Source of the DNA: Staphylococcus phage vB_SurM-PSU4 | Reading direction: 5' to 3' (one strand) | Sequence record: OL436245.1 | DNA: 64,000 bases | Part shown: positions 2,782 to 28,675 of the stretch, piece after piece | How positions within the stretch are numbered: the stretch's first letter is position 1 | Layout: each line of letters begins with the position of its first letter | Notes under the pieces: model-generated | What the model was told of the DNA's origin: nothing | Seen by the model: the letters and a program-made list of their open reading frames with translations, nothing else | Database searches by the model: none | Position numbers and translations under genes: made by a program

Positions 2782-3546
2782 TTAATCATCTAAAAAGAAT
2801 TCGTTATTGTCTTCATAACTTGTGTTAATGAATACAGAATCAAATTCATTTTCATTATTTTTAATGTATAAGTCTTCTAGACGTGATAGACCAATTCTCG
2901 CATATATACTTGCTTGACTATAATGGTCATCACCTTTTCTCTTGATTACTTGATACATTTCTTCTGTCTTGCTATCTTCTTCATCTCTGATGACCACATT
3001 TTGCCAATGTTTAAGAAGTATAGCTTTATCATTATCATTTTCTTGGTAAATTCTTATTCTACCTGTTTTTAAATCTTGGATATAAATTTTGTTCTGCATC
3101 AATTTATCTACAGTAACAATATTTGAATTCTCGTTAAACACAGGTTTAATTTGTCCAGTAGATTTAGGAGATGATTTGTAAGTACAACCAAACACAATAT
3201 CTTCACCGAAGTATTGTTGGAGTCTTAGTAAGTTGTTTCCTGAATCTCCTGTATCTGCTACAATAATATCTGGGTTATACTTAGAAAATTCTACACGTAT
3301 TTTTTCTATATCCGATTCAACCATGTTAGGGTTTTTATTTCGTTTAACATTAAATAACCTAATGAGGTCTATCTTACCATCTTCAGTCATTCCATGAATT
3401 GTACAATAATGAATATTACCCCAATCCACTGATGCTGCGATAAATTTATAATCCCCTCTATTAAACATTTGTTTCTTAGCAATAGGAGATTGGTTGTTGT
3501 AAATATCTTCTTGTAATACTTTCATCTTCTGGTCTTCGTATGGAAA
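2782..3546 (-). CDS. terL: Terminase large subunit, last exon (C-terminal RNaseH-like nuclease domain); exon start approximate
   Basis: The translation carries the typical TerL nuclease motifs (FIAASVDWG, IVADTGDSG). The exon start at ~3546 is inferred by analogy to other intron 3' ends in this window (ggtagtaacg|tttcc). The ORF track lists 2782-3561 from a GTG start. Confidence 0.75.
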   Translation of the reverse strand, partial: FPYEDQKMKVLQEDIYNNQSPIAKKQMFNRGDYKFIAASVDWGNIHYCTIHGMTEDGKIDLIRLFNVKRNKNPNMVESDIEKIRVEFSKYNPDIIVADTGDSGNNLLRLQQYFGEDIVFGCTYKSSPKSTGQIKPVFNENSNIVTVDKLMQNKIYIQDLKTGRIRIYQENDNDKAILLKHWQNVVIRDEEDSKTEEMYQVIKRKGDDHYSQASIYARIGLSRLEDLYIKNNENEFDSVFINTSYEDNNEFFLDD

Positions 3547-4118
3547 CGTTACTACCGTCACTTTCGTGATATTTATATACGGACTAGACTATATCATATT
3601 CCTTATTTTTGACTAAGGAATCTCTACTTTACAGGTCGTTAACCTTCTCTTATAGTTCTACCTTACCTCATTTAGTAAGTTACCTATAAACTTAGTCGTT
3701 AGGCATTTATCTACTTTGTAGAATTTAGCAATTGATTGCCCTCATCTTTACATGTTAGGGGTTTCCAATTTTAGTAGAGTTATTCGATATACATTACTGT
3801 ATAAAGGGGCTATCCCGCTAACCCAGCGTGTAGTTGTAGAACAATTGAGTTGATTCAGTATTCATTTCTTTTTCTTTTAATTCACTAGCTGAAATCCAAC
3901 ATTTTTTTGTTACGATTGAGTTCGTTATTCTCAACCTTCTATATATCGCTATATAAGTTCAGACTATATCTTTACCTTATCAAATGAGACTTAGGTATCC
4001 TCTGTTTCGTGCTACTTAGCACTACTAATTAGTCGTTGCACGTTCTCTTATTACAAGAGCTTCGCTCATGATTATCTCTAATGAGAGACTTCCCATGAAT
4101 TAAAAGGACTTCACTCTA
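3547..4118 (-). mobile_element. ORF-less group I intron region in terL containing two P7-like cores; probably two introns flanking a cryptic ~100-nt micro-exon (~3821-3922)
   Basis: Two copies of the caacgacta...gatatagtct (P7 5'/3') motif pair are present. Between them, an open frame of 35 codons (NSIVTKKCWISASELKEKEMNTESTQLFYNYTLG) begins exactly at the predicted intron end. The same arrangement is seen in the tail-tube gene. Confidence 0.5.
3821..3922 (-). CDS. terL: Candidate terL micro-exon (cryptic, <60 aa, not in ORF track)
   Basis: The frame is open only in the exon-compatible phase. It is bounded by a ...gagaataacg intron-3'-like end and a gcccctttatacag intron-5'-like sequence. Inference only. 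Confidence 0.35.
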
Positions 4119-4499
4119 TACATTTCTATATAGAGGGGCTTGGTTAACCGCATTTAGCTGTGAAATAAAATAACCTCTTGTTCCTTTTCCACCTTTAGTT
4201 CTTTCAGGATACTTACAGTGCCATTCTCCGTTATACCATCTATCTAGAAGTTTACCACATTTTTGACAAACAAATTGGTAACTTCCTTCTTGCACTGTTT
4301 TAGCCATTTCGTCAACACCTTCAGGATTGACTAATAGGATATTTCCACTCTTCTCTAAGTTATCTGGGTCATAGTCTTCATAACTCATTTCATTTAAGTA
4401 ATCACAATGTGTACATCTATGACCATAATACCATTGGTCAGATTGCATATAGAGTTTATGAATTCCCATATTTGGAGTCGTCTTCAACATTACTATTTT
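4119..4499 (-). CDS. terL: Terminase large subunit exon (approximate boundaries)
   Basis: ORF 4116-4502 translates to ...YFISQLNAV..., lying between intron-like sequences. The putative upstream intron ends in ...gagatagtccattttattatg. Confidence 0.6.
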
Positions 4500-5691
4500 C
4501 ATAATAAAATGGACTATCTCATAATCCTTAGTTTTGGTTAAGGATTCTCTGCTTTACGATTTTATAAATAACTAAAAATAACTTCTTTTATTTCTTCATC
4601 TGTATAAGTATAGGGTATTCTTAATAAATCTATATTATTTTTTTCAGCATAATTATTTTTAATATTATCTCTTCTTTGTTGGTCTTTCAATTTTTTAGCC
4701 CCACCAAAAAATTCTACAGGTTTACTATGCTGAATTCCATCATATTCTATAAGAAGGTTTTTACTAGGAATATAAAAATCAAAAGGTAAGTATTTACCTC
4801 TAACTTTTAAATCTTCATATACTTTTTGTATTTCGTAAGTAACTTTATTATCTTTTAGAACTCTCTCTACTTTTCTCTCACCCTTAGATTGTTTACAAAA
4901 AGGACATCTATTACCATTTAAAAAATCTTTAGGTGTAACATAGTAATCAGAACCACAACCTTTATGATGAACAACAACATTTGACCTATTATTAATATAC
5001 TCAGATTTTAAAATAAATTCACCCTCACCTTTTTGTAATACCTCTTTTTTAAATTCCTCAGTAGTTTTTCTTCTATTACCAAAACAATAGGGGCATCTAT
5101 TACCTCTTAAGAAATCTTTAGGTGTCATATCAAAAATATTATCACATTTGAAATGTTTTATTTTTATCTTAGTAGTGCTTCTTCTATACTTTGTTAGTTG
5201 TTGATACTCTTCTTTTGCTATTTCTTTGAATTCTTTTTCAAAAATATAAGGATTTTTTCTTGTTGTGTTACATGAACATCTTCTATTATCATAGAAAAAA
5301 TGATTGGGTGTTGTTGTGAATATCTCACCACAATCAGTATGGAAAAAATCCATATTTACGTTACCTTTTATATATTCTGATTTAACCTTGTATTCTTCCC
5401 CTACTTTATTATACAATCTTTCTTTTATATCTTCTGTAGTTACTTTTTTAGTCATTTAAATCATCCTCTTATTAATATTTTATTCAATTATAACAAATAA
5501 ATATTAATAAGTCAATGATTATTTAAAATCTTTTATCTGATTCTACCTTACTCCTTTTAGTAAGTTACTCAGAAATTTAGTCTCTAGGCATTTACAAGTA
5601 TATAACTTGATTTAGCAATTGATTGTCTACAGCATTATCTGTTTAGAGTTTCCAATTTTAACAGAGTTTTTCAAAACAAATTACTTTGTTA
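4500..5691 (-). mobile_element. Group I intron in terL carrying a homing-endonuclease ORF
   Basis: The intron begins TAACAAAG right after exon ...CGTGGGGCT, giving an in-frame UAA. It has aattggaaac/gcaatcaattgctaaat family motifs and a 3' gagatagtcc core, and the 297-aa ORF sits inside. Confidence 0.65.
4562..5455 (-). CDS. Intron-encoded homing endonuclease, triple CxxC zinc-ribbon N-terminus plus Vsr/DUF559-like PD-(D/E)XK C-terminus
   Basis: The repeat C-x3-F-x3-P-x2-F-L-x-G-N-R-C-P-x-C occurs three times. The C-terminus reads LIEYDGIQH...FFGG...QQRRDNIKNNY...LLRIPYT and is shared with the ORFs at 6065-7048 and 27740-28675. Confidence 0.65.
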   Translation of the reverse strand: MTKKVTTEDIKERLYNKVGEEYKVKSEYIKGNVNMDFFHTDCGEIFTTTPNHFFYDNRRCSCNTTRKNPYIFEKEFKEIAKEEYQQLTKYRRSTTKIKIKHFKCDNIFDMTPKDFLRGNRCPYCFGNRRKTTEEFKKEVLQKGEGEFILKSEYINNRSNVVVHHKGCGSDYYVTPKDFLNGNRCPFCKQSKGERKVERVLKDNKVTYEIQKVYEDLKVRGKYLPFDFYIPSKNLLIEYDGIQHSKPVEFFGGAKKLKDQQRRDNIKNNYAEKNNIDLLRIPYTYTDEEIKEVIFSYL

Positions 5692-5997: not shown

Positions 5998-7318
5998 CAT
6001 TTTTACCCCTAGTTTCCTAGTATTTAAAGGGATTAGACTATATCATAAGAATACATTTATATATTTAAATACGGACTGTATTCTTCTCTGCTTTACTTCC
6101 TAATAAGTATTTATCTTTTAAGTCTTCTAAGTAATTTATAAGTTTTATTCCTGCTATTGTGTAAGGTATTCTAATCATCTCAATGTTATTATCTTTAGCG
6201 TACTTATTTTTTATATCATCTCTTATTTGTTGCTTTTTGAAGGCTTCTAAACCTCCAAAATATTCTATAGGTTCATAATGTTGTTTCCCATCATATTCAA
6301 TAAAAAGCCCATTCTCACCATAATCAGGTATATAAAAATCAAACTTTAAAATGTTAATATATCTACAATCCTCAAATGATTTTTGAAACTCATATATTAT
6401 ACCTTCATCTTTTAAAAATCCCGCTATTATATCTTCGCCATTAGAAATACTACTACATTGAGGGCATCCTGTTAACCTTAAAACATGATTAGGTTCAGCT
6501 TTAAAAACACATTTACACTCATTACATTGGAAAGATGTTTTAGTATGAGTATTTACATAATCACCTATCAAACTTATTTTACCTTTGTGAAAATACTCTA
6601 ATTGTTCTTGAACAACATCTATCTTCTTACGTTGAGATTCTTTAACATTTTCTATGATACATTGAGGACATACATTCTTCCTTCTTTTACTTATCATATT
6701 TATAGGTGTATTATAAAAATAAAAATCATGTACATTACATTTTAATTTTATACTTTCCGAATATCCTGTATATTCACCAATAACAGAAATATTATTATTG
6801 TACTTTTTATTTATCTCATCTTTAAACGTATCTGTTGTTTTAATTCTTTTTTGATTATCACAATAATAACATCTACTATTTCCTGTTAGGAAATTATTTG
6901 GTTTTACAGACCATTCATTACCACAAATGTTATGTTTCATAAGTATTTTATCTCTAGTTCTTGTATACTTACCAATAACTGTGTATTCATTACCTACTAA
7001 ATCATATATTTCTCGTTCAAATTCTTCTTGTGTTTTCTTTTTAGACATTCTTATCCCCCTTTCTTATCTTTTTATACTTATTAGGTTTTCTTATACTATT
7101 TTCGTTATCTCCATTCAGATAACTATTAGTAAGTTTAGTCGTTAGACATTTATCCTAACATTACTATATCATATATAAATATAGTTGTCAAGAATTTAGT
7201 ACGGTAGGTTCCCACTATCTGTGTATAGTCAGAGTTAGGGTTTCTTACCAGTATATTGTTTATCTATACATTATTTTACTATGCCCGTTTAACAGAGTTT
7301 TAGTTCCCCACTCTGTTA
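5998..7318 (-). mobile_element. Group I intron in terL carrying a homing-endonuclease ORF
   Basis: The intron starts TAACAGAG directly after the exon codon ...ATGAAA. Its 3' end reads gatatagtctaatccctttaaatactaggaaactaggggtaaaaatg, and the 327-aa ORF sits inside. Confidence 0.65.
6065..7048 (-). CDS. Intron-encoded homing endonuclease (CxxC zinc-ribbon repeats plus Vsr/DUF559-like nuclease motif), paralog of 4562-5455
   Basis: Several CxxC/CPxC zinc-ribbon modules are followed by the C-terminus FIEYDGKQHYEPIEYFGG...QQIRDDIKNKY...MIRIPYT. Confidence 0.65.
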   Translation of the reverse strand: MSKKKTQEEFEREIYDLVGNEYTVIGKYTRTRDKILMKHNICGNEWSVKPNNFLTGNSRCYYCDNQKRIKTTDTFKDEINKKYNNNISVIGEYTGYSESIKLKCNVHDFYFYNTPINMISKRRKNVCPQCIIENVKESQRKKIDVVQEQLEYFHKGKISLIGDYVNTHTKTSFQCNECKCVFKAEPNHVLRLTGCPQCSSISNGEDIIAGFLKDEGIIYEFQKSFEDCRYINILKFDFYIPDYGENGLFIEYDGKQHYEPIEYFGGLEAFKKQQIRDDIKNKYAKDNNIEMIRIPYTIAGIKLINYLEDLKDKYLLGSKAEKNTVRI

Positions 7319-8700: not shown

Positions 8701-8974
8701 ATTCTTCTATTAATTCTTTCATGACTTCTACTTCTTCAGATGTTTCTCTTGTTTTTCTTAGTATATATTCTGGTAGAGGGTCTTCTCTTCTCTGTATAAC
8801 TTTTTCGTGTATCTTATTACCTGTATAGTAAGCAAACACACCTACGCTCACGTAAACTAATACAGATAATGGTCGGATACTGAAAGTAAGAGCCATAATG
8901 TCAGCAAAGGATAAAAAGCATAATAACACTACCATTCCTAATATTAGTTTAAGAAAGAATTCATTCACTTTCAT
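8585..8974 (-). CDS. Small membrane protein (two TM helices, charged C-terminal tail)
   Basis: An AGGTGA RBS lies 10 nt upstream of ATG 8974. Two hydrophobic helices are followed by a highly charged C-terminus (holin-like topology, though the function is unknown). Confidence 0.5.
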   Translation of the reverse strand: MKVNEFFLKLILGMVVLLCFLSFADIMALTFSIRPLSVLVYVSVGVFAYYTGNKIHEKVIQRREDPLPEYILRKTRETSEEVEVMKELIEEYGISKEEIRMRAKVREESGRNLERKDKTDEEQVKEKSI

Positions 8975-9171
8975 ATTTCTTTTTCACCTAAATTCATTTT
9001 AATTTATGTGTGTCACACGTAAAAACTTTTAGTGATACTATTACTAATATAATAACACAATAGAAATAACACATACAATTTAGTTGTGCACTATTATATC
9101 GTTACTGTAATTAACTACTATGTTATATTATTACTAGGTATTTATACTAGACTAAGAATGGTGTGTTATGA

Positions 9172-9438
9172 ATGATATTAACAACCTCTATCTCTATAGT
9201 TATCATTCTCTTTTATCTTTATTGCCTTATCATTGTTACAAGGAATTTATCATCTTCTATATATTTCAAAAGAACAGATAATATTTTAAAATATGGGCTA
9301 ATTATTATAATAATATTTCTGTTCTATGTGTCCACTATAATATTAACTTTGCAAAATAATACTATAGCTTTACTATCTATCCTAACAATCTTACTTATAT
9401 CTCTTACTATTACTATTATAACATACTTTACGAGGTAA
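9172..9438 (+). CDS. Very hydrophobic small membrane protein
   Basis: 88-aa ORF that is almost entirely I/L/T/S-rich and is predicted to form 2-3 TM segments. Confidence 0.4.
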   Translation: MILTTSISIVIILFYLYCLIIVTRNLSSSIYFKRTDNILKYGLIIIIIFLFYVSTIILTLQNNTIALLSILTILLISLTITIITYFTR

Positions 9439-9469
9439 TACAAATTCAATTAATAGGGGGTTAGAACTA

Positions 9470-9793
9470 ATGACTAAATACAGAGATGTGTTGAAAGTAG
9501 AATTTAAAGATGCTATTAGGCACTTTCTCAGAAATCGTAATGTGTATCACATATACAGAATAAACCGTCTTATGTCTAATGGTACACTTATCAACTTCGA
9601 TTTTTATTTTTTACCTTCTCAAAACCCTGAGAGAGTAATACAAGAAATAGATTTAAAAGATTATGGTAAATTAACTTTTGAAATAGATGTTACTAATTCC
9701 TATGGAAAAATAATTAGTGATGATTACAATGATGTCATAAATAAATTTATAGAAAATTATGACGTAGAATCAAAACACCTTGGAAAGAATTAG
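9470..9793 (+). CDS. Hypothetical protein
   Basis: 107-aa ORF with an RBS-like GGGGG upstream. Confidence 0.45.
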   Translation: MTKYRDVLKVEFKDAIRHFLRNRNVYHIYRINRLMSNGTLINFDFYFLPSQNPERVIQEIDLKDYGKLTFEIDVTNSYGKIISDDYNDVINKFIENYDVESKHLGKN

Positions 9794-9805
9794 AGGTGTT
9801 ATATA

Positions 9806-10132
9806 GTGGAAAATTATGAAGACTTGTCACAAAAAGTAGAAACACTGAAAGAAAATATACAAGATAAAGGTTATATAGATAGTGCTACTTTTAAGGAGTT
9901 GGAAAATAGGGTTAATTTATTGAGTGATGCTGTAAAAGATTTGGATAAAGATATTGCTATTAAACAAGAAAAGCAAGCACAGATATATATTCAAATTGAT
10001 AGGTTAGATGAATTGATTAAAGAAATGAAAACCTCAACATCAACCAAAGAAGATAAAAAGAAAGACACTATCGAAAAAGTTTTACTTTTAATTATAGGTG
10101 GAATAATTTCTTTCGTGTTTAATAAATTATAA
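9806..10132 (+). CDS. Coiled-coil protein with C-terminal TM anchor
   Basis: 108-aa ORF with a heptad-rich acidic sequence and a C-terminal LLLIIGGIISFVF. Confidence 0.45.
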   Translation: MENYEDLSQKVETLKENIQDKGYIDSATFKELENRVNLLSDAVKDLDKDIAIKQEKQAQIYIQIDRLDELIKEMKTSTSTKEDKKKDTIEKVLLLIIGGIISFVFNKL

Positions 10133-10151
10133 TTGATAAGGAGAAAATGAA

Positions 10152-10355
10152 ATGATAGAGATAACTATGATTAGCGGAAAGATATATTATAAAAAAATGG
10201 AACAAAGTACAGAGAGAAGTAATGTAGGAGATATGCAAAAACTAATGTCAGGTAAGGGTAATGCTGTAGAAGCATACAGCACTGAAAGTTTTAACCAAGA
10301 AGATAAAGTATTTCTAAGTCCTTTTAATATTGAATCATTCCGTATTATCTTGTAA
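10152..10355 (+). CDS. Hypothetical small protein
   Basis: 67-aa ORF with an AGGAGA RBS. Confidence 0.4.
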   Translation: MIEITMISGKIYYKKMEQSTERSNVGDMQKLMSGKGNAVEAYSTESFNQEDKVFLSPFNIESFRIIL

Positions 10356-10373
10356 TATGTTAAGTAAGTAAGT

Positions 10374-10403
10374 AAGGGTAATTAAGTTTACCCTTATTTT
10401 TTT
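10374..10403 (+). terminator. Rho-independent terminator
   Basis: aagggtaa-ttaag-ttaccctt hairpin followed by a T-run. Confidence 0.6.
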
Positions 10404-10471
10404 ATATATTTTTACTTGCTAGAGAGAAAAAAGTATGATATAGTGTGAATATATAGAAAAATATAGTTAAT

Positions 10472-10500
10472 TTGATTTTACAAATTAGTAAAAGTATGAT
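10472..10500 (+). promoter_or_regulatory. Sigma-A-like promoter (TTGATT-17-TATGAT) reading into the ORF-less region
   Basis: The -35 element TTGATT is at 10472-10477 and the -10 element TATGAT at 10495-10500, with 17-nt spacing. A similar aaaagtatgatata element lies ~50 nt upstream. Confidence 0.45.
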
Positions 10501-11326
10501 ATACTATATTTAGTTAGAAATACATAACAATTAAATAAAGAGCTGATGAGTACACATAATGGTGAGATGTGTAGGAATAGCGACATTGAGGAAGTTAAAT
10601 CGGAGCTTCGAGCATCACCATGAAAATTCGATGGGTATATATGTAAATAAATAGTACAATGGTGCATATATTTCCAGATTTGGTGATGACTACCAATGTA
10701 CTAAAAAGGTCAGGGAGGTTTCTTGTTGTGCTTTGCACAGGGGAGCCTTGTTCCCATATACAGACTTCACGAGGGGCGGTAGCTATCCCCTCTTTAAACA
10801 TTATAACTAAAGGCTAAACGAAGTAGTATAGGTTGTTAGGACAAGAATTAACGTAAAACAAGGTTAGCACTAGACCGTAATCTATACATATTTTATACAC
10901 TATGATTATATCTTTCTAGTTACAATTCTGTTGTACCTAGGGGATAAGTCTACCCGTAATGCTACGCAAACCTAAACCAATAAAACACAAAACAAATAAC
11001 CTAAATAATTAATAACTTATTATTTACTGTAGACTTATCTAATAACTAAATAAATTAAATAATAAATATATAGACTTAAAAAAGAGAATAAGATATATAA
11101 CAAATTAGAGAGTATATAGAAAGTAACTAAATAATATATACAGTAAAATAAATAAATATACATAATATATAATTAAACTTAAAAGTATATAAATATATTA
11201 ATTTAAGTAAGTGATTGTAGTGAAGAATTAGAGCGAATCTTTATAACTTAATTATATACATATACATACATAAATATTTAGATATACTGGATAAATTAAT
11301 TTAGTATATATTTTTTTATATAAGTG

Positions 11327-11355
11327 TTGACATATTACGATTTATAAGATATAGT
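11327..11355 (+). promoter_or_regulatory. Strong sigma-A-like promoter (TTGACA-17-TATAGT)
   Basis: Consensus -35 element TTGACA at 11327-11332 and -10 element at 11350-11355, in an AT-rich tract. Confidence 0.5.
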
Positions 11356-11396
11356 TAAACTATACTAATTATTCAAGATATTAATTAAAAAAGTTA

Positions 11397-11425
11397 TTGA
11401 CAAACACTAATCAATATATTATAAT
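11397..11425 (+). promoter_or_regulatory. Strong sigma-A-like promoter (TTGACA-17-TATAAT) for the 11465 gene
   Basis: Perfect consensus -35 (11397-11402) and -10 (11420-11425) hexamers ~40 nt upstream of the RBS/ATG. Confidence 0.55.
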
Positions 11426-11464
11426 TAGATATATAAAATAAATTAAAGAAAAGGAAATGATAAT

Positions 11465-11674
11465 ATGAAAAAACAAGTAATGGTTTATAGTAAATTAGAA
11501 TGTCAAGAATGCGGAACTGATTTAAGTATTCCTAGAAAAAGAGCTAAGAAAAGAAGTGAAGGACACATTAAACATATGTATTGTCCTACATGCCAATCAA
11601 CAACAGGATTTGTAGAAACAAATAAAGATAAGTCATATGATTTTTGGGAACAATGGCAAGCACAATTTAACTAA
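11465..11674 (+). CDS. Small zinc-ribbon protein (CQEC...CPTC)
   Basis: 69-aa ORF with two CxxC pairs, driven by consensus early-type promoters. Confidence 0.5.
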   Translation: MKKQVMVYSKLECQECGTDLSIPRKRAKKRSEGHIKHMYCPTCQSTTGFVETNKDKSYDFWEQWQAQFN

Positions 11675-11688
11675 GGAGATGATAAAAG

Positions 11689-11991
11689 ATGAGTAACTAT
11701 ACAAGACATGGACAGAAAAGAATACGTAAAAGACAAGGTGTTAAAAAAAGTAATTTAGAAGATGAAATAGATAAAGTGTTAGATGAAGGGTTAAGTCATG
11801 GAGACTGTAAAGGAAAACTTAAGAAATACTTAGACAGATTATGGTTTAGTCATAAGAGTGGTTACTTCAGAGTATATAAATCTAACATTTATATATTTGA
11901 CTTTAATACAGATAGGTTAATTACAATGTATGCTCTTCCTGGACACTTAAATAAGATATATCAACAATGTTTAAAAAAGAAGTCAATTTGA
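11689..11991 (+). CDS. Hypothetical basic protein
   Basis: 100-aa ORF with an AGGAGA RBS, co-transcribed with 11465-11674. Confidence 0.45.
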   Translation: MSNYTRHGQKRIRKRQGVKKSNLEDEIDKVLDEGLSHGDCKGKLKKYLDRLWFSHKSGYFRVYKSNIYIFDFNTDRLITMYALPGHLNKIYQQCLKKKSI

Positions 11992-12139
11992 TTTTGTAGA
12001 AATGGACTTATGTGTTATAATGTACTTAAGTAGTTGATATACACTACTTAAACCACATACCCACCCTAAGTTCAGAGGGATTAAGTTCTCTCTGTTCATA
12101 CATAAATATTAGTGTATTGAAAGCACTTGTTATAATGAC

Positions 12140-12310
12140 TGAATAATGGTTTGGTATCCATAAGGTATAAGATAATCAAACGAACTAAAACTTATCGGAG
12201 ACATAATGCTCCACTAGTAGGTAACTTACTGGAAGGAGCTACAATTGTAATCGGTAGGATGAGTCGTCATTAGTATTGTTTAATACGATTGGTATACTTG
12301 GTACTTGATT
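12140..12310 (+). pseudogene. Decayed fragment of an endolysin SH3b cell-wall-binding domain
   Basis: The stretch 12205-12249 (aatgctccactagtaggtaacttactggaaggagctacaattgta) is ~80% identical to the lysin gene at ~15735-15780 (aatgctccagtaggaggtaacttaccagcaggggctacaattgta). The translation NAPLVGNLLEGATIV matches [15 protein letters not shown] and is followed by a stop. Weaker similarity extends upstream. Confidence 0.5.
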
Positions 12311-13424
12311 ATAAGGACTGTAGAGTATGATAACAGCTAGAGTTTAACTTCTTCTTAGGGTCTTAGCGGAATCCTATGAAGATACGCTATAACGACTTCT
12401 TGTAGTTGGAGCACAGAAATGTGTTTGATAATAGAGGTTATCAGTACAAGTAGCATAAATCTACATTTCAAAAGATATATTTGGTAAATATAAAAGTGAA
12501 ACCAAATAAATTATTTCTTCAACCATGTGAACGTTACTAACTATTATGTTAGTATCACATTATCCTTTTGGATTGCGTGAGATGGACTTAAGGTAGCTCC
12601 TTAATAGAGTCAATCGTAGTGATTCACTTAATAACAGGTCTTATAATCAGGTTCTCGGTGAGACGAGTTATAACAAGTGCTTTGATTACATTAGTAATCT
12701 AATAACAATAATTCCTTCGTTTTATTCCTTACATTTTTTATTGTTATATTAAGTCTTAGGTATATGAAAAGATATTGTAGTTATCAAAATTTAAATCATA
12801 TAAATCCTCCTTTCCCTTTGTTTTTTTGTATAGATTCATTCTACAGACAAATCGAAGTAATATACCTATAAACCCACTTTAAATAATTAGTATGGATGAA
12901 TAGTGGGCTCCATACTATACATAAACATTTTAACATATGACTGTTTTTTTAGACCTTACCCTGTTTTCCAGTATAAAACAATAACTAATGGTAAGGGTAT
13001 ATTTGAAATTTAGACTTTTCATTAAGTCTTTCCGTTCGTGAAAAATGATTGAGGGTTTTGAGAGTTCCCCTTGGCTAACAATAACTCTCTTTATATCCCT
13101 TAATTGTGTAAAACATGAGAGATACCATGTCATTAGGGAGTTTCGGCTGGTAACTTCTTCCAGTCCAGTATCTAAATAGCTTATGGTGAGCGTATACGTC
13201 AGAAAAGACGTTAAAAACTTAGGATGACATTGACTGAGTAGGAATAATATGTTACTCGATTTCCCCACACGAGTATAAATAAGCATTGGGGAGCATACAT
13301 AATAGTAATTGATATTGCCCCTGTTTCAATCTTTATCAATTCTTTTTTACATATATTAAAAGGATAAAATTATATGAATGTATAGGAAATTACATATAAC
13401 TTATCTGATGAGAGGGGATTTAAT

Positions 13425-13661
13425 ATGGATAAACAATTACCTAAGTTTAGTATATTTAAAGTAACTAAATATAAAAAAGTTTCTGATATTCAAGTAGATA
13501 ACTCGAAAGAAGAAGGAAATGTTTCTATATCAAAAGAAGAATATTACTTTAGCACTAAAGAATTAGCACAGAAATATATTAGTCAATATAAATATGTAAT
13601 TAATATTGATTGTAAATTAAAAGAAATAAAAGTGAATGAGGAAGTTATTTTAAATGGCTAG
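13425..13661 (+). CDS. Hypothetical protein
   Basis: 78-aa ORF with an AGAGGGG RBS. Confidence 0.45.
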   Translation: MDKQLPKFSIFKVTKYKKVSDIQVDNSKEEGNVSISKEEYYFSTKELAQKYISQYKYVINIDCKLKEIKVNEEVILNG

Positions 13662-13839
13662 TTATAAACAAACTAACTATGTAAATAGTTTAATTGTAAA
13701 AGGTTTAATGGAAGATAAAATTAAAGACAAACAAGACTTATTAGATAAGTTAGAAATCCTTGATGGGGTTAGTTTATCAGATTTTGATACAAAAGAGACT
13801 TCCGATATTATTAAAAAATTAAATACAATAGTAGAATAA
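13654..13839 (+). CDS. Hypothetical small protein
   Basis: 61-aa ORF whose start overlaps the upstream stop. Confidence 0.4.
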   Translation: MASYKQTNYVNSLIVKGLMEDKIKDKQDLLDKLEILDGVSLSDFDTKETSDIIKKLNTIVE

Positions 13840-13851
13840 AATTGCTATATT

Positions 13852-13890
13852 ATCCATTGAAGATTAAAAGTCTTTGATGGATTTTTTTAT
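13852..13890 (+). terminator. Rho-independent terminator upstream of lysis cassette
   Basis: 12-bp stem (atccattgaaga/tctttgatggat, 2 G-U pairs) followed by TTTTTTT. Confidence 0.5.
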
Positions 13891-13914
13891 ATAATATTAT
13901 AGGAGTGATAGATA

Positions 13915-14436
13915 GTGTCAAAAGATACTAACCAGAAAAAACCTAAAGTATTTTTAGGTCAAAACTTATCTACACGTGTACGTAGTCCTTATTTTTGGAC
14001 AGGTGTTGTAGGTATTTTAGGTAGTGCAGTTGTATCATTCGGTGGATTAATAGGTGTAGACTTATCAGCTCAAGTAGATAATGTCACAGCTAACTCAAGT
14101 AAAATTATTGAGTTTATTTTCTTAATCCTTGGATTGTTAGGTGTTTCAGTAGACCCTAATAGTAAAGGTAGAAAAGATAGTGAGATTGTGAGAACTAGTT
14201 ACAAAAAACCTAGAAATGATAAAGACCCTAACGAATTTGTTCAATGGCAAGAAAATGCAAAACAAACAAGTGCTTTTGAGATAGACGAATACGAAAACAA
14301 TGCAGAGCCTGATACAGATGATAGTGATGAAGTACTTGCTATCGAAGATGAGATTGATGGGGGCTCAGCACCTTCTCAAGAGGAAGAAGATACTGAGGAA
14401 CATGGTAAAGTATTTGCAGAGGATGAAGTTAAGTAA
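13915..14436 (+). CDS. Holin
   Basis: 173-aa protein with two predicted TM helices and a charged C-terminus. It starts at GTG with an AGGAGTG RBS and ends overlapping the endolysin start (ATGA). Confidence 0.7.
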
Positions 14437-15923
14437 TGACTAAGACTCAAGCAGAAATAAATAAACGTTTAGATGCTTACGCAAAAGGAACAGTAGATAG
14501 CCCTTATAGAGTTAAGAAAGCAACAAGTTATGACCCTAGTTTTGGTGTTATGGAAGCAGGAGCTATTGATGTAGATAAATATTACCACGCTCAATGTCAA
14601 GACCTTATTACAGACTATGTATTATGGCTAACAGATAATAAAGTTAGAACTTGGGGTAATGCTAAAGACCAAATCAAACAAAGTTACGGTACTGGATTTA
14701 AAATACACCAAAATAAACCTTCTACAGTACCTAAAAAAGGTTGGATTGCAGTATTTACAGGTGGTAGTTATTCACAGTGGGGTCATATAGGTATTGTATA
14801 TGATGGAGGTAATACTTCAACATTTACTATTTTAGAGCAAAACTGGAACGGTTACGCTAATAAAAAACCTACAAAACGTGTAGATAATTATTACGGATTA
14901 ACTCATTTCATCGAAATACCTTTAAAAGCAGGAACTACTGTTAAAAAAGAAACAGCTAAGAAAAGTGCAAGTAAAACACCCGAACCTAAAAAGAAAGCAA
15001 CATTAAAAGTTTCTAAGAATCATATTAACTATACAATGGCTAAACGTGGTAAAAAACCTGAAGGCATGGTAATACACAACGATGCGGGTCGTTCTTCAGG
15101 ACAACAATATGAGAATTCATTAGCTAAAGCAGGTTATGCTAGGTATGCTAATGGTATTGCTCATTACTACGGTTCTGAAGGTTATATATGGGAAGCAATA
15201 GATGCTAAGAATCAAATTGCTTGGCACACAGGTGATGGAACAGGAGCAAACTCAGGTAACTTTAGATTTGCAGGTATTGAAGTCTGTCAATCAATGAGTG
15301 CTAGTGATGCTCAATTCCTTAAAAATGAACAAGCAGTATTCCAATTTACAGCAGAAAAATTTAAAGAGTGGGGTATTACGCCTAACCGTAAAAGTGTAAG
15401 ATTACACATGGAATTCGTTCCTACTGCGTGCCCTCACCGTTCAATGGTTCTTCATACAGGATTTAATCCAGTAACTCAAGGAAGACCATCACAAGCAATA
15501 ATGAATAAACTAAAAGATTATTTCATTAAACAAATTAAAAACTACATGGATAAAGGCACTTCAAGTTCTACTGTAGTTAAAAAAGGTAAAACAAGTAGTG
15601 CAAGTACACCAGCAACTAGACCAGTTGTAGGTTCTTGGAAAAAGAACCAGTACGGAACTTGGTATAAACCAGAAAATGCAACATTTGTTAATGGTAACCA
15701 ACCTATAGTAACTAGAATAGGTTCTCCATTCTTAAATGCTCCAGTAGGAGGTAACTTACCAGCAGGGGCTACAATTGTATATGACGAAGTTTGTATCCAA
15801 GCAGGTCATATTTGGATAGGTTATAATGCTTATAACGGTAACAGAGTATATTGCCCTGTTAGAACATGTCAAGGTGTTCCACCAAACCATATACCAGGAG
15901 TTGCCTGGGGTGTATTTAAATAG
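14436..15923 (+). CDS. Endolysin, LysK-like: N-terminal CHAP, central amidase_2 (N-acetylmuramoyl-L-alanine amidase) and C-terminal SH3b cell-wall-binding regions
   Basis: 495-aa ORF whose regions were assigned by eye: a CHAP-like segment ([12 protein letters not shown] ... SQWGHIGIV), an amidase_2-like segment (MVIHNDAG...[11 protein letters not shown]) and an SH3b-like C-terminus. The length and order match phage K LysK. No intron is evident. Confidence 0.9.
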
Positions 15924-24807: not shown

Positions 24808-26577
24808 ATGGCTGAAAGTGTATTTCCAAGAATCCCTATCACCCGTCCACATACAGAAATAAATGTAGATACGTCAGGTATTGGTGGTTCAGCAAGTTCA
24901 AGTGAGAAGATTCTTTGCTTAATTGGACAAGCTGAAGGTGGGGAACCTAACACAGTATATGAATTACGAAATTATTCACAAGCTGAACAAATTTTCCGTT
25001 CAGGAGAATTAGTAGATGCTATTCACTTAGCATGGACTACAAACCCACAATTTACAGCAGGAACTATTTTAGCAATGCGTATTGAAGATGCAGAACCTGC
25101 AACACTAACTAAAGGTGGATTAACTTTTAAATCTAAAATCTATGGTGTAGACTCTAATGACATTCAAGTTGCTTTAGAAGAAAACACTATCACAGATTCT
25201 TACCGTTTGAAAGTTATCTTTGATAAAGACCGTATTCGTAACACTTACGATAATATTGGTAACATCTTCAAATTAGAGTATACAGGTGAAGGTCAAGGTA
25301 CTTATACAGTTAAACATAATAAAGAAACTGGTGAAGCTACAAACCTAATCTTAAGTGAAGATGGTTCAGAAGTAAGAAATTATGCACTAGGTGAAGGTGT
25401 ATATGAATATACGAATGACATCATTAAAGACGTAAACAACTTACCAAGCTTTAAAGCTACATTGTCACCATTCGGAAATAAAGACTTAGAAACTAAGTAT
25501 TTAGATGAAGCTAAAGATGTAGATATTAAAGTTGAAGATGGGGTTTATGTAACAGCAATCTTCGGAGATATTTTAAAACAAACTAAATATGACCAAGCAA
25601 TATCAATTGAACGTACAGAAGAACAACAAGATTCTCCAAGCGATGTAAGTGTAGAAGCAGGTGAAAGTAGTGCTGAAGTATCAGCAGGAAGTACTGTATC
25701 TGTACAAGACATTGAACCATTTGAATTATCTAACTTACAAGGCGGAACAAATGGAACACCTCCAAGCACTTGGTCAGAAAAATTAGATAAATTTTCACAT
25801 GAAGGTGGATACTACATTGTACCACTAAGTTCTAGACAATCTGTACACGCAGAGGTTGCACACTTTGTAACTTCACGTTCAGATGCAGGAGAACCAATGA
25901 GAGCTATTGTAGGTGCAGGAATTAATGAAGCAAAAGAACAATTAATTGGTCGTGCTTCAGCTCTAGTAAATCCTCGTGTTACACTTGTAGCTAACTCTGG
26001 TACATTTATGATGGATGATGGACGTAGAAACCATGTACCTGCATATATGGTAGCAGCAGCTATCGGTGGTTTAGCAAGTGGACTAGGTATTGGTGAATCA
26101 ATTACATTCAAGAACTTCCGTATTAATTCACTAGACCAAGTTTATGAATCAGCAGACTTAGACCAATTAAACGAAAACGGTGTAGTAACTATCGAATTCG
26201 TTCGTGACAGATTAAACACTCGTTTCCGTATTGTTGATGATGTAACAACATACAATGACACAAGAGACCCTGTTAAATCTGAAATGGCAATTGGTGAAGA
26301 AAACGACTTCTTAAGTTCTGAACTTAAAATCTTACTTGATGATAACTTCATCGGTTCTAGAACAACAGAAACAAGCCCTTCAATCATCAAAGACTTTATT
26401 CAGTCTTATCTTGAACGTAAAAAACGTGACCATGAAATCCAAGATTTCACACCAGAAGACGTACAAGTTATTGTTGAAGGTAAAGAAGCACGAATCTCAA
26501 TGACAGTATTCCCAATCAGAACATTGAAAAAAATTACTGTATCATTGGTTTACAAAGAACAACAATTACAAGCCTAA
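24808..26577 (+). CDS. Tail sheath protein
   Basis: 589 aa. The N-terminus MAESVFPRIPITRPHTEINVDTSGIGGSASSSEKILCLIGQAEGGEPNTVYELRNYSQAEQIFRSGEL and the C-terminus ...ISMTVFPIRTLKKITVSLVYKEQQLQA closely match what I recall of the Twort-like/phage K sheath. Confidence 0.85.
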   Translation: MAESVFPRIPITRPHTEINVDTSGIGGSASSSEKILCLIGQAEGGEPNTVYELRNYSQAEQIFRSGELVDAIHLAWTTNPQFTAGTILAMRIEDAEPATLTKGGLTFKSKIYGVDSNDIQVALEENTITDSYRLKVIFDKDRIRNTYDNIGNIFKLEYTGEGQGTYTVKHNKETGEATNLILSEDGSEVRNYALGEGVYEYTNDIIKDVNNLPSFKATLSPFGNKDLETKYLDEAKDVDIKVEDGVYVTAIFGDILKQTKYDQAISIERTEEQQDSPSDVSVEAGESSAEVSAGSTVSVQDIEPFELSNLQGGTNGTPPSTWSEKLDKFSHEGGYYIVPLSSRQSVHAEVAHFVTSRSDAGEPMRAIVGAGINEAKEQLIGRASALVNPRVTLVANSGTFMMDDGRRNHVPAYMVAAAIGGLASGLGIGESITFKNFRINSLDQVYESADLDQLNENGVVTIEFVRDRLNTRFRIVDDVTTYNDTRDPVKSEMAIGEENDFLSSELKILLDDNFIGSRTTETSPSIIKDFIQSYLERKKRDHEIQDFTPEDVQVIVEGKEARISMTVFPIRTLKKITVSLVYKEQQLQA

Positions 26578-26646
26578 TCTAGTGGAGTACCTAGATTAGG
26601 TACTCCTATTATGAAAAAGTTAAACAAAATAGGAGAGTGAATATAG

Positions 26647-26974
26647 ATGGCAAGTGAAGCTAAACAAAGTATTCACACTGGTAATACCGTCTATCTAATG
26701 GTTAAGGGTAAAATTGTAGGCAGAGCTCAATCAGCTTCAGGTACACGTGAATACGGTACTGAGGGCGTATATGAAATTGGTTCTATCATGCCACAAGAAC
26801 ACGTTTACCTTAGATACGAAGGTACAGTGACAATAGAAAGATTACGAATGAAAAAAGAAAACTTTGCAAAATTAGGATATGCTTCTTTAGGTGAAGAAAT
26901 CCTTAAAAAAGATGTTATCGATATTTTAGTTGTAGATAACTTAACTAAGAGTGTAATCATAGCGTATCATGGTT
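26647..26974 (+). CDS. Tail tube protein, exon 1
   Basis: MASEAKQSIHTGNTVYLMVKGKIVGRAQSASG... matches what I recall of the Twort-like tail tube. The unspliced ORF stops at 26985 after only 112 aa, and the exon is predicted to end at ...CATGGTT. Confidence 0.7.
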
Positions 26975-27275
26975 TAACTAAATAGACCCCTTGTACAGTG
27001 ATGTGCATTGAATAATACTTTAAATTGCTAGAACACCGTAAAGCTAACTTAACCACATAGGAATTGGAAACGATAAACTAGAAGGTCAGGAAACTAGAAA
27101 AAATAAGTTAGATGGTATATGGTTAAAACCTAAGTACTAATTAATCGGAAATTAGCATCGAAGCTCCTGTAAAATGGAGAACGTTCAACGACTATAATAA
27201 GTGAGTCTTAGTTACAATAAGATTATGGAATAGTCTAGTCCGTATATAAATATTGCGAAAGCAACGGTAGAATCG
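26975..27275 (+). mobile_element. ORF-less group I intron 1 in tail-tube gene
   Basis: It begins TAACTAAATAGACCCC like the terL introns. It contains gagaacgttcaacgactataa (P7 5') and ggaatagtctagtccgtatataaat (P7 3'), and ends ...ggtagaatcG. Exon 1 + exon 2 then read YHG-C-SANNY in frame. Confidence 0.65.
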
Positions 27276-27352
27276 GTTCAGCGAATAACTATGATGAAGA
27301 GATAAACACGAACGAAATGATAACTGAGAGCATAGAGTTTTCTTATCTTACA
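27276..27352 (+). CDS. Tail tube protein, micro-exon 2 (encodes CSANNYDEEINTNEMITESIEFSYLT)
   Basis: The frame is open only in the phase created by splicing from 26974. The peptide matches my recollection of the phage K tail tube C-terminal region. The exact 3' end is ambiguous within ~3 nt. Confidence 0.6.
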
Positions 27353-27616
27353 GCATTAAATTTCTAGTGCCCTTATACAGTAATGTATATTGAATAAATC
27401 CTCTAATTCAGGGAAACCCTAAACGAAATTAAGACGTAGGCAATCCTGAGCTAAGCCTGTAACATACAGGAAAGTGCAACGACTATCTCTACGGAGAGTA
27501 CGCTCAAGTGAGTGGAAATGGGGATTATCCTATAAAGTATAGGATAGTGATATAGTCTGGACATATATGGAAACATATAGAAGGTTAGGAGTAACGAACC
27601 TAATCGTAACACAATC
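27353..27616 (+). mobile_element. ORF-less group I intron 2 in tail-tube gene (or non-spliced 3' intron relic)
   Basis: gcccttatacagtaatgtatattgaataa...ggaaaccctaa...ggcaatc...gtgcaacgactat...gatatagtctgg is closely similar to the 3' half of terL intron 3. If spliced, the C-terminus becomes ...YLTADKAS*. If not, the protein ends ...YLTALNF* at 27367. Confidence 0.5.
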
Positions 27617-27634
27617 GCAGATAAAGCATCATAA
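27617..27634 (+). CDS. Tail tube protein, putative terminal mini-exon 3 (ADKAS-stop)
   Basis: gca gat aaa gca tca taa lies immediately upstream of a strong terminator. It matches the recalled K-like C-terminus ...SDKARQ. Inference. Confidence 0.4.
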   Translation, partial: ADKAS

Positions 27635-27648
27635 TAATTTAGTATACT

Positions 27649-27688
27649 TAAACCCAACTTTTATTGTTGGGTTTATTTTTTTTTAATT
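27649..27688 (+). terminator. Rho-independent terminator after tail-tube gene
   Basis: aaacccaac-ttttatt-gttgggttt hairpin followed by T11. Confidence 0.7.
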
Positions 27689-27689
27689 T

Positions 27690-27725
27690 GCTTTATCAGA
27701 AGCAGTATGTTATAATATAAATATA
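27690..27725 (+). promoter_or_regulatory. Promoter of the free-standing homing endonuclease gene (TTGCTT ... TGTTATAAT)
   Basis: A -35-like TTGCTT and an extended -10 TGtTATAAT are followed by an AAGGAGA RBS and the ATG at 27740. Confidence 0.5.
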
Positions 27726-27739
27726 AGGAGATGATATAA

Positions 27740-28675
27740 ATGAAACAAACAAACCAATTTACATTTAATAAAAAAGAAAGTCAGAAGATATGGGAAGAAT
27801 GGTGTATCAATCAGGGGTTAAAACCTTTAGTTACATATGAGAAATCTCAACAACCTTTTTATTTTGAATTTACTTCAGGTAAATTTAAAGGATTAGTAGG
27901 TAAAACATATTGGGCTAGTATAAAAAGAGGTTCAATAATGAGATTGAGTTGCTTAACAGAAGAGAGTAAAAATAAATATATTAAAGAATTAGGTAAAAGT
28001 AAAGGAATAGAAATTATAGAAGACTATAAAGGAGGTAGAAAAATAAAGCATAAGTTTATTTCAATAGATGGAAAATACAAAGGGTGTGAGGGACAAGTAA
28101 CCTTAAATGACTTAGAGAATATGAAATCTATAGATAATAGAAGTTTAACAATTAAAGGTAAAAAACAATATTTTGATTATAAAGCGAAACAAAGAGATTG
28201 TACAATACTAGAATATCCAGAAAATTATAATATAAAAACCAATGAAAAACTAATAGTAGAAGATAACAAAGGATTAAAACATGAGATAATAGTCCAAGAC
28301 TTTTTTGAGAAAAACTCTATATTAGAAGTTTCAAATTTTAGTGAAGGAGAAAAAATAGTTAAAGAAATACTTATAGAAAGAGGTATTGATTTTATCAAAG
28401 AGAAAGGATTTAAAAATAGTAAAGGTATAACACAGAGGTTTGACTTTTATATAGAATTAGGAGAAGAATTATTTGTAATAGAGTATAATGGTTCACAACA
28501 TTATAAAAAAGCAACGGGATACTTTAAAGATACATTAGAAAAAACTCAAAAAAGAGATGAGTTGAAAAGAGAATATTGTAAAAGAAATAATATATATCTT
28601 TTGGAAATACCTTATACTATTAAAGATAAAGAAAGTATAGACAAAGAGATAAAAGAATTTTTAGACCTAGATTAA
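27740..28675 (+). CDS. Free-standing homing endonuclease (zinc-ribbon repeats plus Vsr/DUF559-like nuclease motif), paralog of the two terL intron ORFs
   Basis: 311-aa protein with the C-terminus FVIEYNGSQHYKKATGYF...QKRDELKREYC...YLLEIPYT, very similar to the C-termini of 4562-5455 and 6065-7048. It has its own promoter and terminator. Confidence 0.65.
   Translation: MKQTNQFTFNKKESQKIWEEWCINQGLKPLVTYEKSQQPFYFEFTSGKFKGLVGKTYWASIKRGSIMRLSCLTEESKNKYIKELGKSKGIEIIEDYKGGRKIKHKFISIDGKYKGCEGQVTLNDLENMKSIDNRSLTIKGKKQYFDYKAKQRDCTILEYPENYNIKTNEKLIVEDNKGLKHEIIVQDFFEKNSILEVSNFSEGEKIVKEILIERGIDFIKEKGFKNSKGITQRFDFYIELGEELFVIEYNGSQHYKKATGYFKDTLEKTQKRDELKREYCKRNNIYLLEIPYTIKDKESIDKEIKEFLDLD

Follow-up and report, generated by a model that had tools for sequence, protein, structure and literature searches.

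Why does the tail-tube gene of Staphylococcus phage vB_SurM-PSU4 close after only 112 codons, and what fills the gap that follows it? We analyzed a stretch of 64,000 nucleotides (nt) from sequence record OL436245.1 (hereafter, the window), which originates from a Twort-like staphylococcal myovirus; across positions 26400-27800, its nearest database relative was Staphylococcus phage vB_SsapH-Golestan101-M (Baoshanvirus, Twortvirinae), with 98.2% identity. In the list of open reading frames (ORFs), the unspliced tail-tube ORF (26647..26985, plus strand) encodes 112 amino acids (aa) and ends in ...AYHGLTK*. No substantial plus-strand ORF was listed in 26986-27646, the largest being one of 39 aa at 27567-27686, and the next substantial ORF starts only at 27740, in agreement with the initial annotation of this locus. 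That annotation had proposed a micro-exon bordered by two ORF-less group I introns in the tail-tube gene, and a covariance model, the fold, covariation, and homologues all bore this out: the end of the 112-aa ORF is, with high probability, the run-in to an intron, in a tail-tube gene split by two such introns on either side of a micro-exon.

Exons and predicted product of the tail-tube gene

In the corrected gene model, exon 1 (26647..26974, plus strand, 328 nt) runs from Met1 to the first base of Cys110 and ends at U26974. Micro-exon 2 (27276..27356, plus strand) is 81 nt long, not about 77 nt as first estimated, and supplies the rest of Cys110, then SANNYDEEINTNEMITESIEFSYLTA, then the first base of Ser137. 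Exon 3 (27618..27634, plus strand, 17 nt) supplies the rest of Ser137, DKAS, and the stop codon TAA (27632-27634). Joined together (26647-26974 + 27276-27356 + 27618-27634), these segments form a frame of 426 nt encoding 141 aa and ending in ...AYHG-C-SANNYDEEINTNEMITESIEFSYLTA-S-DKAS* (...SYLTASDKAS*); the peptide HGCSANNYDEEINTNEMITESIEFSYLTASDK of this product spans both exon junctions.

The spliced product matched PHROG 985 (virion structural protein, tail tube) with an E value of 5e-71 over positions 1-140 of 141, whereas no Pfam family matched it. The tail tube of phage K, an uninterrupted protein of 142 aa that ends in ...SYLTASDKART*, aligned with it as one tblastn piece, gap-free over residues 1-140 and with 85.7% identity, as the initial annotation had stated for the C-terminal region encoded by exon 2. 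The tail-tube chain of PDB entry 8q01 and those of ten other entries were also aligned with the spliced protein without gaps over residues 1-140, and the chain held in the solved virion structures is 142 aa long. The micro-exon peptide CSANNYDEEINTNEMITESIEFSYLTA corresponds to the uninterrupted C-terminus of the homologues, as seen across the first junction in JDF86 and along the entire protein in phage K and PDB 8q01. The alignment of the exons with related tail tubes, which had been set as a test, returned homologues of about 142 aa that include the micro-exon peptide and do not end near residue 112.

The strongest evidence for intron 1 is a sequence comparison with JDF86. This relative, whose aligned flanks are 95.8% identical, reads ...CATGGCT/GTTCAGCT... 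(the slash marks the insertion site) and lacks exactly 26975-27275, its ORF running on as ...AYHGCSANNYDEEINTNEMITESIEFSYLTA; the junction 26974/27276 proposed at the outset was exact. Exons 1 and 2 are contiguous in both JDF86 and phage K. Intron 2 is absent from K and DH2, K is devoid of both introns, and these contiguous ORFs encode 142-143 aa.

A single precursor, extending from about 26640 to the terminator, would carry two ORF-less group I ribozymes, each predicted to fold into a group I core with helices P1-P9 and a P3/P7 pseudoknot. Following the established group I mechanism (two-step, guanosine-initiated transesterification), an exogenous guanosine would attack directly behind the U that pairs with G in P1 (U26974 in the case of intron 1, U27356 in that of intron 2), and the freed 5' exon would then attack after the terminal G (G27275 and G27617, respectively). 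Ligation of the segments of 328, 81, and 17 nt would produce a 426-nt messenger RNA for a 141-aa tail tube. Ribosomes translating the unspliced RNA would be stopped by in-frame TAG codons at 26983-26985 in intron 1 and 27365-27367 in intron 2, and the genomic ORF reads as 112 aa because of the first of these, just inside intron 1. An in-frame stop a few codons into the intron is typical for phage group I introns (review PMC3984707). Downstream, the terminator scan reported an intrinsic-terminator-like hairpin with a T tract (27649..27685, plus strand), made of a 10-base-pair stem (27649-27675) and a T run, with which the tail-tube transcription unit ends; at the equivalent position of phage K, a terminator is annotated.

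Detection and structure of the two introns

A local scan of 26600-27750 with Rfam RF00028 (Intron_gpI; gathering score, 50 bits) matched 27347-27580 with 95.5 bits (E 4e-25) over the full model (1-253), and 26965-27257 with 33.2 bits (E 2e-6) in a full-length alignment. In this covariance-model search, which the initial annotation had suggested, intron 2 was found well above the gathering score and intron 1 below it. The annotation itself had started from a P7 motif pair seen twice in the gap. Both CAACGACTA (exact at 27186 and 27477) and ATAGTCT (27230 and 27552) do occur twice, but only the second copy has a complete, exact gatatagtct; in its place, the first has ggaatagtct. The bare motifs are no rarer than expected by chance in this AT-rich 64-kilobase (kb) stretch (12 matches versus 9.4 expected, and 25 versus 19.3), and such short motifs are a lead, not evidence. 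The intron call rises above chance because of the local Rfam matches, the exact absence in JDF86, and the covariation found in both introns. Over the window, short-range scans detected four Intron_gpI matches, three of which exceeded or approached the gathering score; default large-query settings were blind to these AT-rich introns.

Intron 1 (26975..27275, plus strand, 301 nt) contains no ORF and ends in G27275. A spliced-alignment survey revealed a homologue of 301-303 nt inserted at nt 328, in phase 1 of Cys110, in nine additional phages, namely Golestan101-M, phiIPLA-RODI (RODI), Romulus, DH2, SapYZU04, B2-102, V1SA19, EW15, and BE25, which belong to Baoshanvirus, Kayvirus, Silviavirus, Sepunavirus, and genus-unassigned Twortvirinae. 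The ten copies (8 distinct sequences) were aligned and the canonical P1-P9 structure with the P3/P7 pseudoknot was built by hand: P1 (26971-26976/26983-26988), P2 (26992-26997/27002-27007), P3 (27016-27020/27199-27203), P4 (27026-27031/27152-27157), P5 (27035-27038/27146-27149, with an extension of about 100 nt at 27044-27139), P6 (27159-27167/27176-27183), P7 (27190-27195/27230-27235), P8 (27204-27212/27216-27224), and P9 (27240-27267). The U26974.G26985 pair of P1 at the 5' splice site was present in 10/10 homologues, all of which end in G. Over 84 pairs, 98.5% of the cells were paired, a figure inflated by the fact that the structure was partly derived from the same sequences. The compensatory count is free of this effect when set against slid controls: 26 of the 84 pairs had changed on both sides, compared with 0-2 when the 3' partners were slid by 1-3 columns, and none of 500 shuffles reached the observed value. 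Compensatory pairs were found in P1, P2, P3, P4, P5, the long P5 extension, P6, P8, and P9, while P7 was invariant.

Intron 1 was not filed as IA2, since P7 and P3' are separated by about 6 nt only and the P7.1/P7.2 hairpins are absent. It is a member of a second family, widespread although scoring below the Rfam threshold, in which P5 bears a long extension and P7.1/P7.2 are missing. Compared with its counterparts in Kayvirus, Silviavirus, and Sepunavirus, intron 1 is 85-87% identical, exon 1 78-82%, and the 3' end of the sheath gene 70-76%; between RODI and Romulus, the sheath shows 77% identity and the intron as much as 94%. An RNAalifold fold of intron 1, in which 27025-27038 pairs with the start of exon 2 and P3, P4, and P5 are missing, was replaced by the canonical pairing, which has compensatory support. 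In that fold, the 5' strand of P4/P5 (27025-27038) is paired with 27276-27285, the first 10 nt of exon 2, through 11 conserved pairs with no compensatory change; this could reflect an alternative pre-splicing structure or chance complementarity.

Intron 2 (27357..27617, plus strand, 261 nt) has no ORF, is IA2-like, and ends in G27617. Its P1 (27353-27358/27365-27370) reads GCAU(UA)/(UA)GUGC both in the Rfam alignment and in an independent RNAalifold consensus, with the U27356.G27367 pair in 8/8 homologues. From these eight homologues, RNAalifold recovered P1, P2, P3, P4, P5, P6, P7.1, P7.2, P8, P9, and P9.1, and 22 of 73 pairs were compensatory; the P7 strands lie within 27477-27485 and 27552-27558. 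Compensatory changes occurred in both P7.1 (UCUCU/AGAGA) and P7.2 (CGCUC/GAGUG), as in IA2 introns of the Twort orf142-I2 type. The 3' flank of the introns at this site (nt 409) is CAGATAAAGC in 8/8. Introns 1 and 2 of this phage are 54% identical and of different structural types. We placed the second junction at 27356/27618 because of the U.G pair at the 5' splice site, the terminal G27617, and the restoration of a conserved Ser, which is kept in the ...TASDKA... of all homologues (two read SASDKA).

Several observations weigh against a gene split by two spliced introns. Rfam scans of the whole 64-kb stretch, in both gathering and E-value modes, returned no Intron_gpI match and recovered neither tail-tube intron, and detection depends on scanning a short stretch. 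This miss most likely results from the stricter speed filters applied to long queries and is not evidence of absence; the filter effect is probably also the reason why routine annotation overlooks such introns. The Rfam score of intron 1 lies under the gathering score, as does that of the V1SA19 copy (34.5 bits), because of the P5 extension and the absence of P7.1/P7.2; this cutoff serves as an operational criterion and does not define group I introns as a class. Its single-sequence folding energy was no better than that of shuffled sequences (z -0.70), a measure that is uninformative for AT-rich RNA, and the partly circular origin of its hand-built structure was pointed out above. For this particular phage, splicing and catalysis are inferred. 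The sequence, the fold, the covariation, the exact boundaries, the intronless alleles, and the full-length product in relatives were shown, and we hold it as highly probable that the gene would be spliced as described.

Other explanations of the locus were weighed against these data. The gene could simply be broken, the 112-aa ORF being truncated or pseudogenised or the protein being made of separately translated pieces, with the downstream similarity as a remnant. The GenBank record of Golestan101-M, which annotates only the 112-aa ORF as 'tail tube protein', would fit, but exons 2 and 3 have neither a start codon nor a ribosome-binding site of their own and come into phase only after splicing, the peptide encoded by the micro-exon is conserved, exons and introns meet at exact boundaries, structural selection acts on the introns, and the chain in the solved virion structures has 142 aa. 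We give practically no credence to a broken gene, and the pseudogene and separate-fragment readings were rejected on the grounds of phase, conservation, exact boundaries, and the virion chain. Almost as improbable is the splicing of intron 2 at the boundaries first proposed (intron 27353-27616, junction 27352/27617), which would shorten the C-terminus from ...SYLTASDKAS* to the ...YLTADKAS* of the initial annotation (...SYLTADKAS*). The frame thus obtained is open and also ends in DKAS*. However, A27352 would then be the last base of the exon and C27616 that of the intron, contrary to the rule of a U.G pair and a terminal G; P1 pairs U27356 with G27367 in all eight homologues, in the Rfam alignment as in RNAalifold; and the Ser of T/S-A-S-D-K-A, which would be lost, is kept in every intronless or resolved homologue.

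Two further alternatives accept the introns and concern their behavior. Intron 1 might not be an autonomous ribozyme, being instead a decayed relic that needs a phage or host protein or that is removed only together with intron 2, with an inefficient or variant product. Its score below the gathering threshold here and in V1SA19 (33-35 bits), the lack of P7.1/P7.2, the large P5 insertion, and a folding energy indistinguishable from shuffles point in that direction. Against it stand the strong covariation in each core helix except the invariant P7, the conserved U.G pair and terminal G, and the higher conservation of the intron relative to the coding sequence around it. If an intact tail tube is indispensable, as assumed from general phage biology, the occurrence of the intron at the same site in Baoshanvirus, Kayvirus, Silviavirus, Sepunavirus, and unassigned Twortvirinae argues for efficient removal; we regard a relic as very unlikely. 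Somewhat less unlikely, although still improbable, is that some transcripts also skip the micro-exon, joining 26974 to 27618 to give an in-frame variant of 114 aa ending in ...AYHGSDKAS*. Skipping was detected by reverse transcription-polymerase chain reaction (RT-PCR) in Twort orf142 across a 23-nt exon, and the 81 nt here, a multiple of three, would keep the frame. However, the Twort case was credited to the similarity of its introns I2 and I3, whereas the introns here are only 54% identical and differ in structural type, and the variant would be devoid of 27 conserved residues found in the sequences of the solved tail-tube chains.

Known tail-tube introns and the downstream nuclease gene

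The initial annotation was not aware of any introns described in a major tail structural gene of these phages. They have been described in Twort orf142 (PMC11878797, PMC5526547) and in phages 812 and P4W (PMC6445280), and the GenBank record of P4W annotates a join. The arrangement is already known, and the intron-bearing tail-tube gene reported here adds another example to the well-studied Twort orf142 system. Orf142 is the tail-tube gene of Twort (PMC11878797), also named tmpA (PMC5526547). According to the work of Landthaler and Shub (1999, PNAS 96:7005), as summarised in PMC10136302, it contains three introns of group I, and one of its exons, 23 nt long, can be skipped; the exon skipping between tandem introns was detected by RT-PCR and attributed to the high similarity of I2 and I3. 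Self-splicing is reported in PMC11878797 and PMC10136302 for the Twort tail-tube introns, including I3, the homologue at nt 409.

At the Twort tail-tube locus, we obtained three Rfam matches (63.6, 97.4, and 100.9 bits), which were mapped here to nt 345, 386, and 409. The second of these introns, orf142-I2, is reportedly the Twort ribozyme crystallised by Golden et al. in 2005. Both phages carry ORF-less group I introns separated by micro-exons in the same 3'-terminal region of the same gene, with a related nuclease gene (ORF018 in Twort) directly downstream. Intron 2 lies at the exact I3 site (GCAT/...G/CAGATAAAGC), is 82% identical to I2 and 71.5% to I3, and has P7.1/P7.2 in common with them; it is the counterpart of orf142-I3 by site and of I2 by sequence. 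In contrast, Twort has three introns, none at nt 328, and micro-exons of 41 and 23 nt, whereas this phage has two introns (nt 328 and 409) and a micro-exon of 81 nt, and identity between intron 1 and the individual Twort tail-tube introns reaches only 48-55%.

Phages 812, A3R, 676Z, Fi200W, and P4W have two non-coding tail-tube introns and an adjacent nuclease gene (Botka et al. 2019, PMC6445280). The P4W GenBank record gives tmpA as a join of three exons, with Ioh coming next. Lobocka et al. (2012) reportedly described Kayvirus tmpA with two non-coding introns and the adjacent 'Ioh'/putative intron nuclease. The order of elements is the same here: sheath, three-exon tail tube with two ORF-less introns, terminator, and free-standing PHROG 7140 nuclease. 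Nevertheless, the P4W introns are located at about nt 355-360 and at nt 391 instead of 328 and 409, and the P4W nuclease (467 aa) is only distantly related to the 311-aa protein of this phage.

Intron 1 has its closest kin in the nt-328 family of phiIPLA-RODI, Romulus/Remus, BE25, B2-102, V1SA19, SapYZU04, EW15, and DH2, which has the same insertion point (GGTT/GTTCAGC), the same length range (301-303 nt), and a common fold with compensatory changes. Its members are 85-87% identical to intron 1 (DH2, 72%), but are paired with other second, third, or fourth introns at nt 360, 374, 391, or 402. The copies sit in GenBank records, mostly unannotated, and no explicit description of the family was found in the accessible literature, which excludes Lavigne and Vandersteegen 2013 (the likeliest review) and Lobocka et al. 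2012.

Directly beyond the terminator lies a free-standing nuclease gene (27740..28675, plus strand), a possible homing endonuclease tied to the introns; its 311-aa product matched PHROG 7140 ('intron encoded nuclease', E 1e-37) and, weakly, Pfam DUF2726 at C-terminal residues 244-304. Twort ORF018 and the 'Ioh' of RODI and P4W are of the same family and occupy the same position. The nuclease is 97% identical in Golestan101-M and absent from JDF86 and K, and homologues at the same place in relatives are 35-52% identical. No endonuclease ORF, and hence no intron-encoded homing endonuclease, was found inside either intron: the ORFs listed in 26986-27700 were the 39-aa plus-strand ORF (27567-27686), which begins within the final 51 nt of intron 2 and continues into the terminator, and minus-strand ORFs of 29 aa (26967-27056) and 68 aa (27451-27657). 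The adjacency of the nuclease gene and its variable presence among relatives are as expected for a free-standing homing endonuclease that acts on the neighbouring gene.

ORF-less introns of this kind would spread via recombination promoted by the downstream nuclease (27740-28675), with co-conversion, rather than via an intron-encoded enzyme. This is suggested by the joint loss of the two introns and the nuclease gene in derivatives of phage 812 (812a mutants; PMC6445280), by the conservation gradient around intron 1, and by the synonymous differences between intronless K and the intron-bearing alleles around the insertion sites. Differences of the K type would disrupt both the exon pairing by the introns and any nuclease target. 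Between K (locus coordinates 1121-1229) and exons 2-3 of RODI, which encode the same C-terminal peptide, the nucleotides are nearly identical between clustered differences, located just past the nt 328 site (TGC TCT versus TGT TCA) and at the nt 402-409 sites and in the last exon (AGT GAC AAA GCA CGT versus TCA GAT AAA GCT AGA).

A PHROG 7140-type nuclease was found downstream in 13 of the 18 loci that we surveyed, all 13 of which carry tail-tube introns, and intronless K has none. Two points weigh against the connection: JDF86, Romulus, DH2, and SapYZU04 are intron-bearing loci without the nuclease gene, and the link is a correlation only, in a small and non-random sample. We therefore consider nuclease-stimulated spread of the ORF-less introns, and the role it would give to the nuclease, as possible, with the balance leaning slightly the other way. 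The situation recalls the 'collaborative homing' reportedly described by Zeng et al. (2009) and by Bonocora and Shub (2009) for the cyanophage psbA intron with F-CphI and for the T3/phiI DNA polymerase intron. In those systems, as here, ORF-less group I introns in a conserved phage gene lie beside a free-standing nuclease gene, and the alleles without introns show synonymous differences near the points of insertion. However, some intron-bearing relatives here are without the nuclease gene, and the nuclease is a prediction from its sequence; the comparison is an analogy, not membership.

Tail-tube loci of Twortvirinae and other features of the window

The 18 Twortvirinae loci were picked from BLAST hits, and since some boundaries are uncertain, the survey is to be taken as a lead and not as a result. 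The spliced aligner forces introns to follow T and to end in G, which presupposes the group I rule. When the complementary DNAs of K and this phage were the only references, the terminal micro-exons of RODI, Romulus, and Twort were missed, because the 3' end of K uses different synonymous codons; RODI and Twort references fixed most of them. Boundaries were uncertain for the final intron in Quidividi and BE25 and for the site at about nt 355-360 in P4W and SapYZU04. In the last approximately 80 nt of the gene, group I introns were counted at about 10 different sites (nt 328, 339, 345, about 355-360, 366, 374, 386, 391, 402, and 409). V1SA19 (locus 3568-4731) and SapYZU04 (locus 3568-4763) have four introns each in a single tail-tube gene of 429 nt; in V1SA19, four Rfam matches confirmed them, and the micro-exons measure 46, 17, and 18 nt, two being shorter than the 23-nt exon of Twort.

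In vB_Sau_CG (locus 3340-3672), a 333-nt insertion after nt 339 is followed by a 'putative intron-encoded nuclease', and a spliced model restores 142 aa, whereas no introns were detected in tmpA in the paper on this phage (PMC5526547). Romulus (locus 3568-4241) has introns at nt 328 and 402, both unannotated in its GenBank record, which labels exon 1 as 'capsid protein' and places two predicted promoters inside the nt-328 intron. The Golestan101-M record has only the 112-aa ORF, and its paper does not mention introns. The main practical consequence is one of annotation: Golestan101-M and many further members of the Twortvirinae, such as RODI, Romulus, CG, BE25, Twillingate, and Quidividi, are recorded with a 'tail tube' or 'capsid' protein cut short at 112-122 aa. 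Proteomics, structural studies, and core-gene phylogenies of therapeutic staphylococcal phages all call for properly spliced gene models. The value of the tail-tube introns is thus a corrected annotation, not a discovery, and no new question is opened by them.

A more speculative reading, to which we attach a low probability, is that of an exceptional battleground of introns at the end of the gene (its last approximately 80 nt), where the nuclease would cut intronless alleles, ORF-less introns would spread with it or protect against it via co-conversion, and the 81-nt exon could be skipped in frame. If true, this would explain why Silviavirus tail-tube sequences group with those of Kayvirus (PMC7409376).

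Among the other features of the window, the tail sheath gene (24808-26577) directly precedes the tail-tube ORF. The gene for the large terminase, terL, is located on the minus strand at about 2.8-7 kb and is also split, with fragments at 2782-3561 and 4116-4502 (PHROG 675). The likeness to the terL introns noted by the initial annotation was confirmed by two further ORF-less Intron_gpI matches on the minus strand between these fragments (3564-3830, 48.8 bits; 3939-4157, 90.8 bits), flanking a micro-exon of about 108 nt; the terL and tail-tube introns are only 45-57% identical. Two ORFs of HNH-type endonucleases near terL (4562-5455 and 6065-7048, minus strand) are presumably inside further introns. 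An Rfam scan of 8900-14000 for terL introns found none. The region 10355-13425 shows an unusually low coding density, with short ORFs only, no transfer RNA genes, and no Rfam match. Finally, a weak match to the Staphylococcus small RNA S808 within a coding region (15479-15741; 27.7 bits, E 0.007; gathering score, 76) is probably due to chance.

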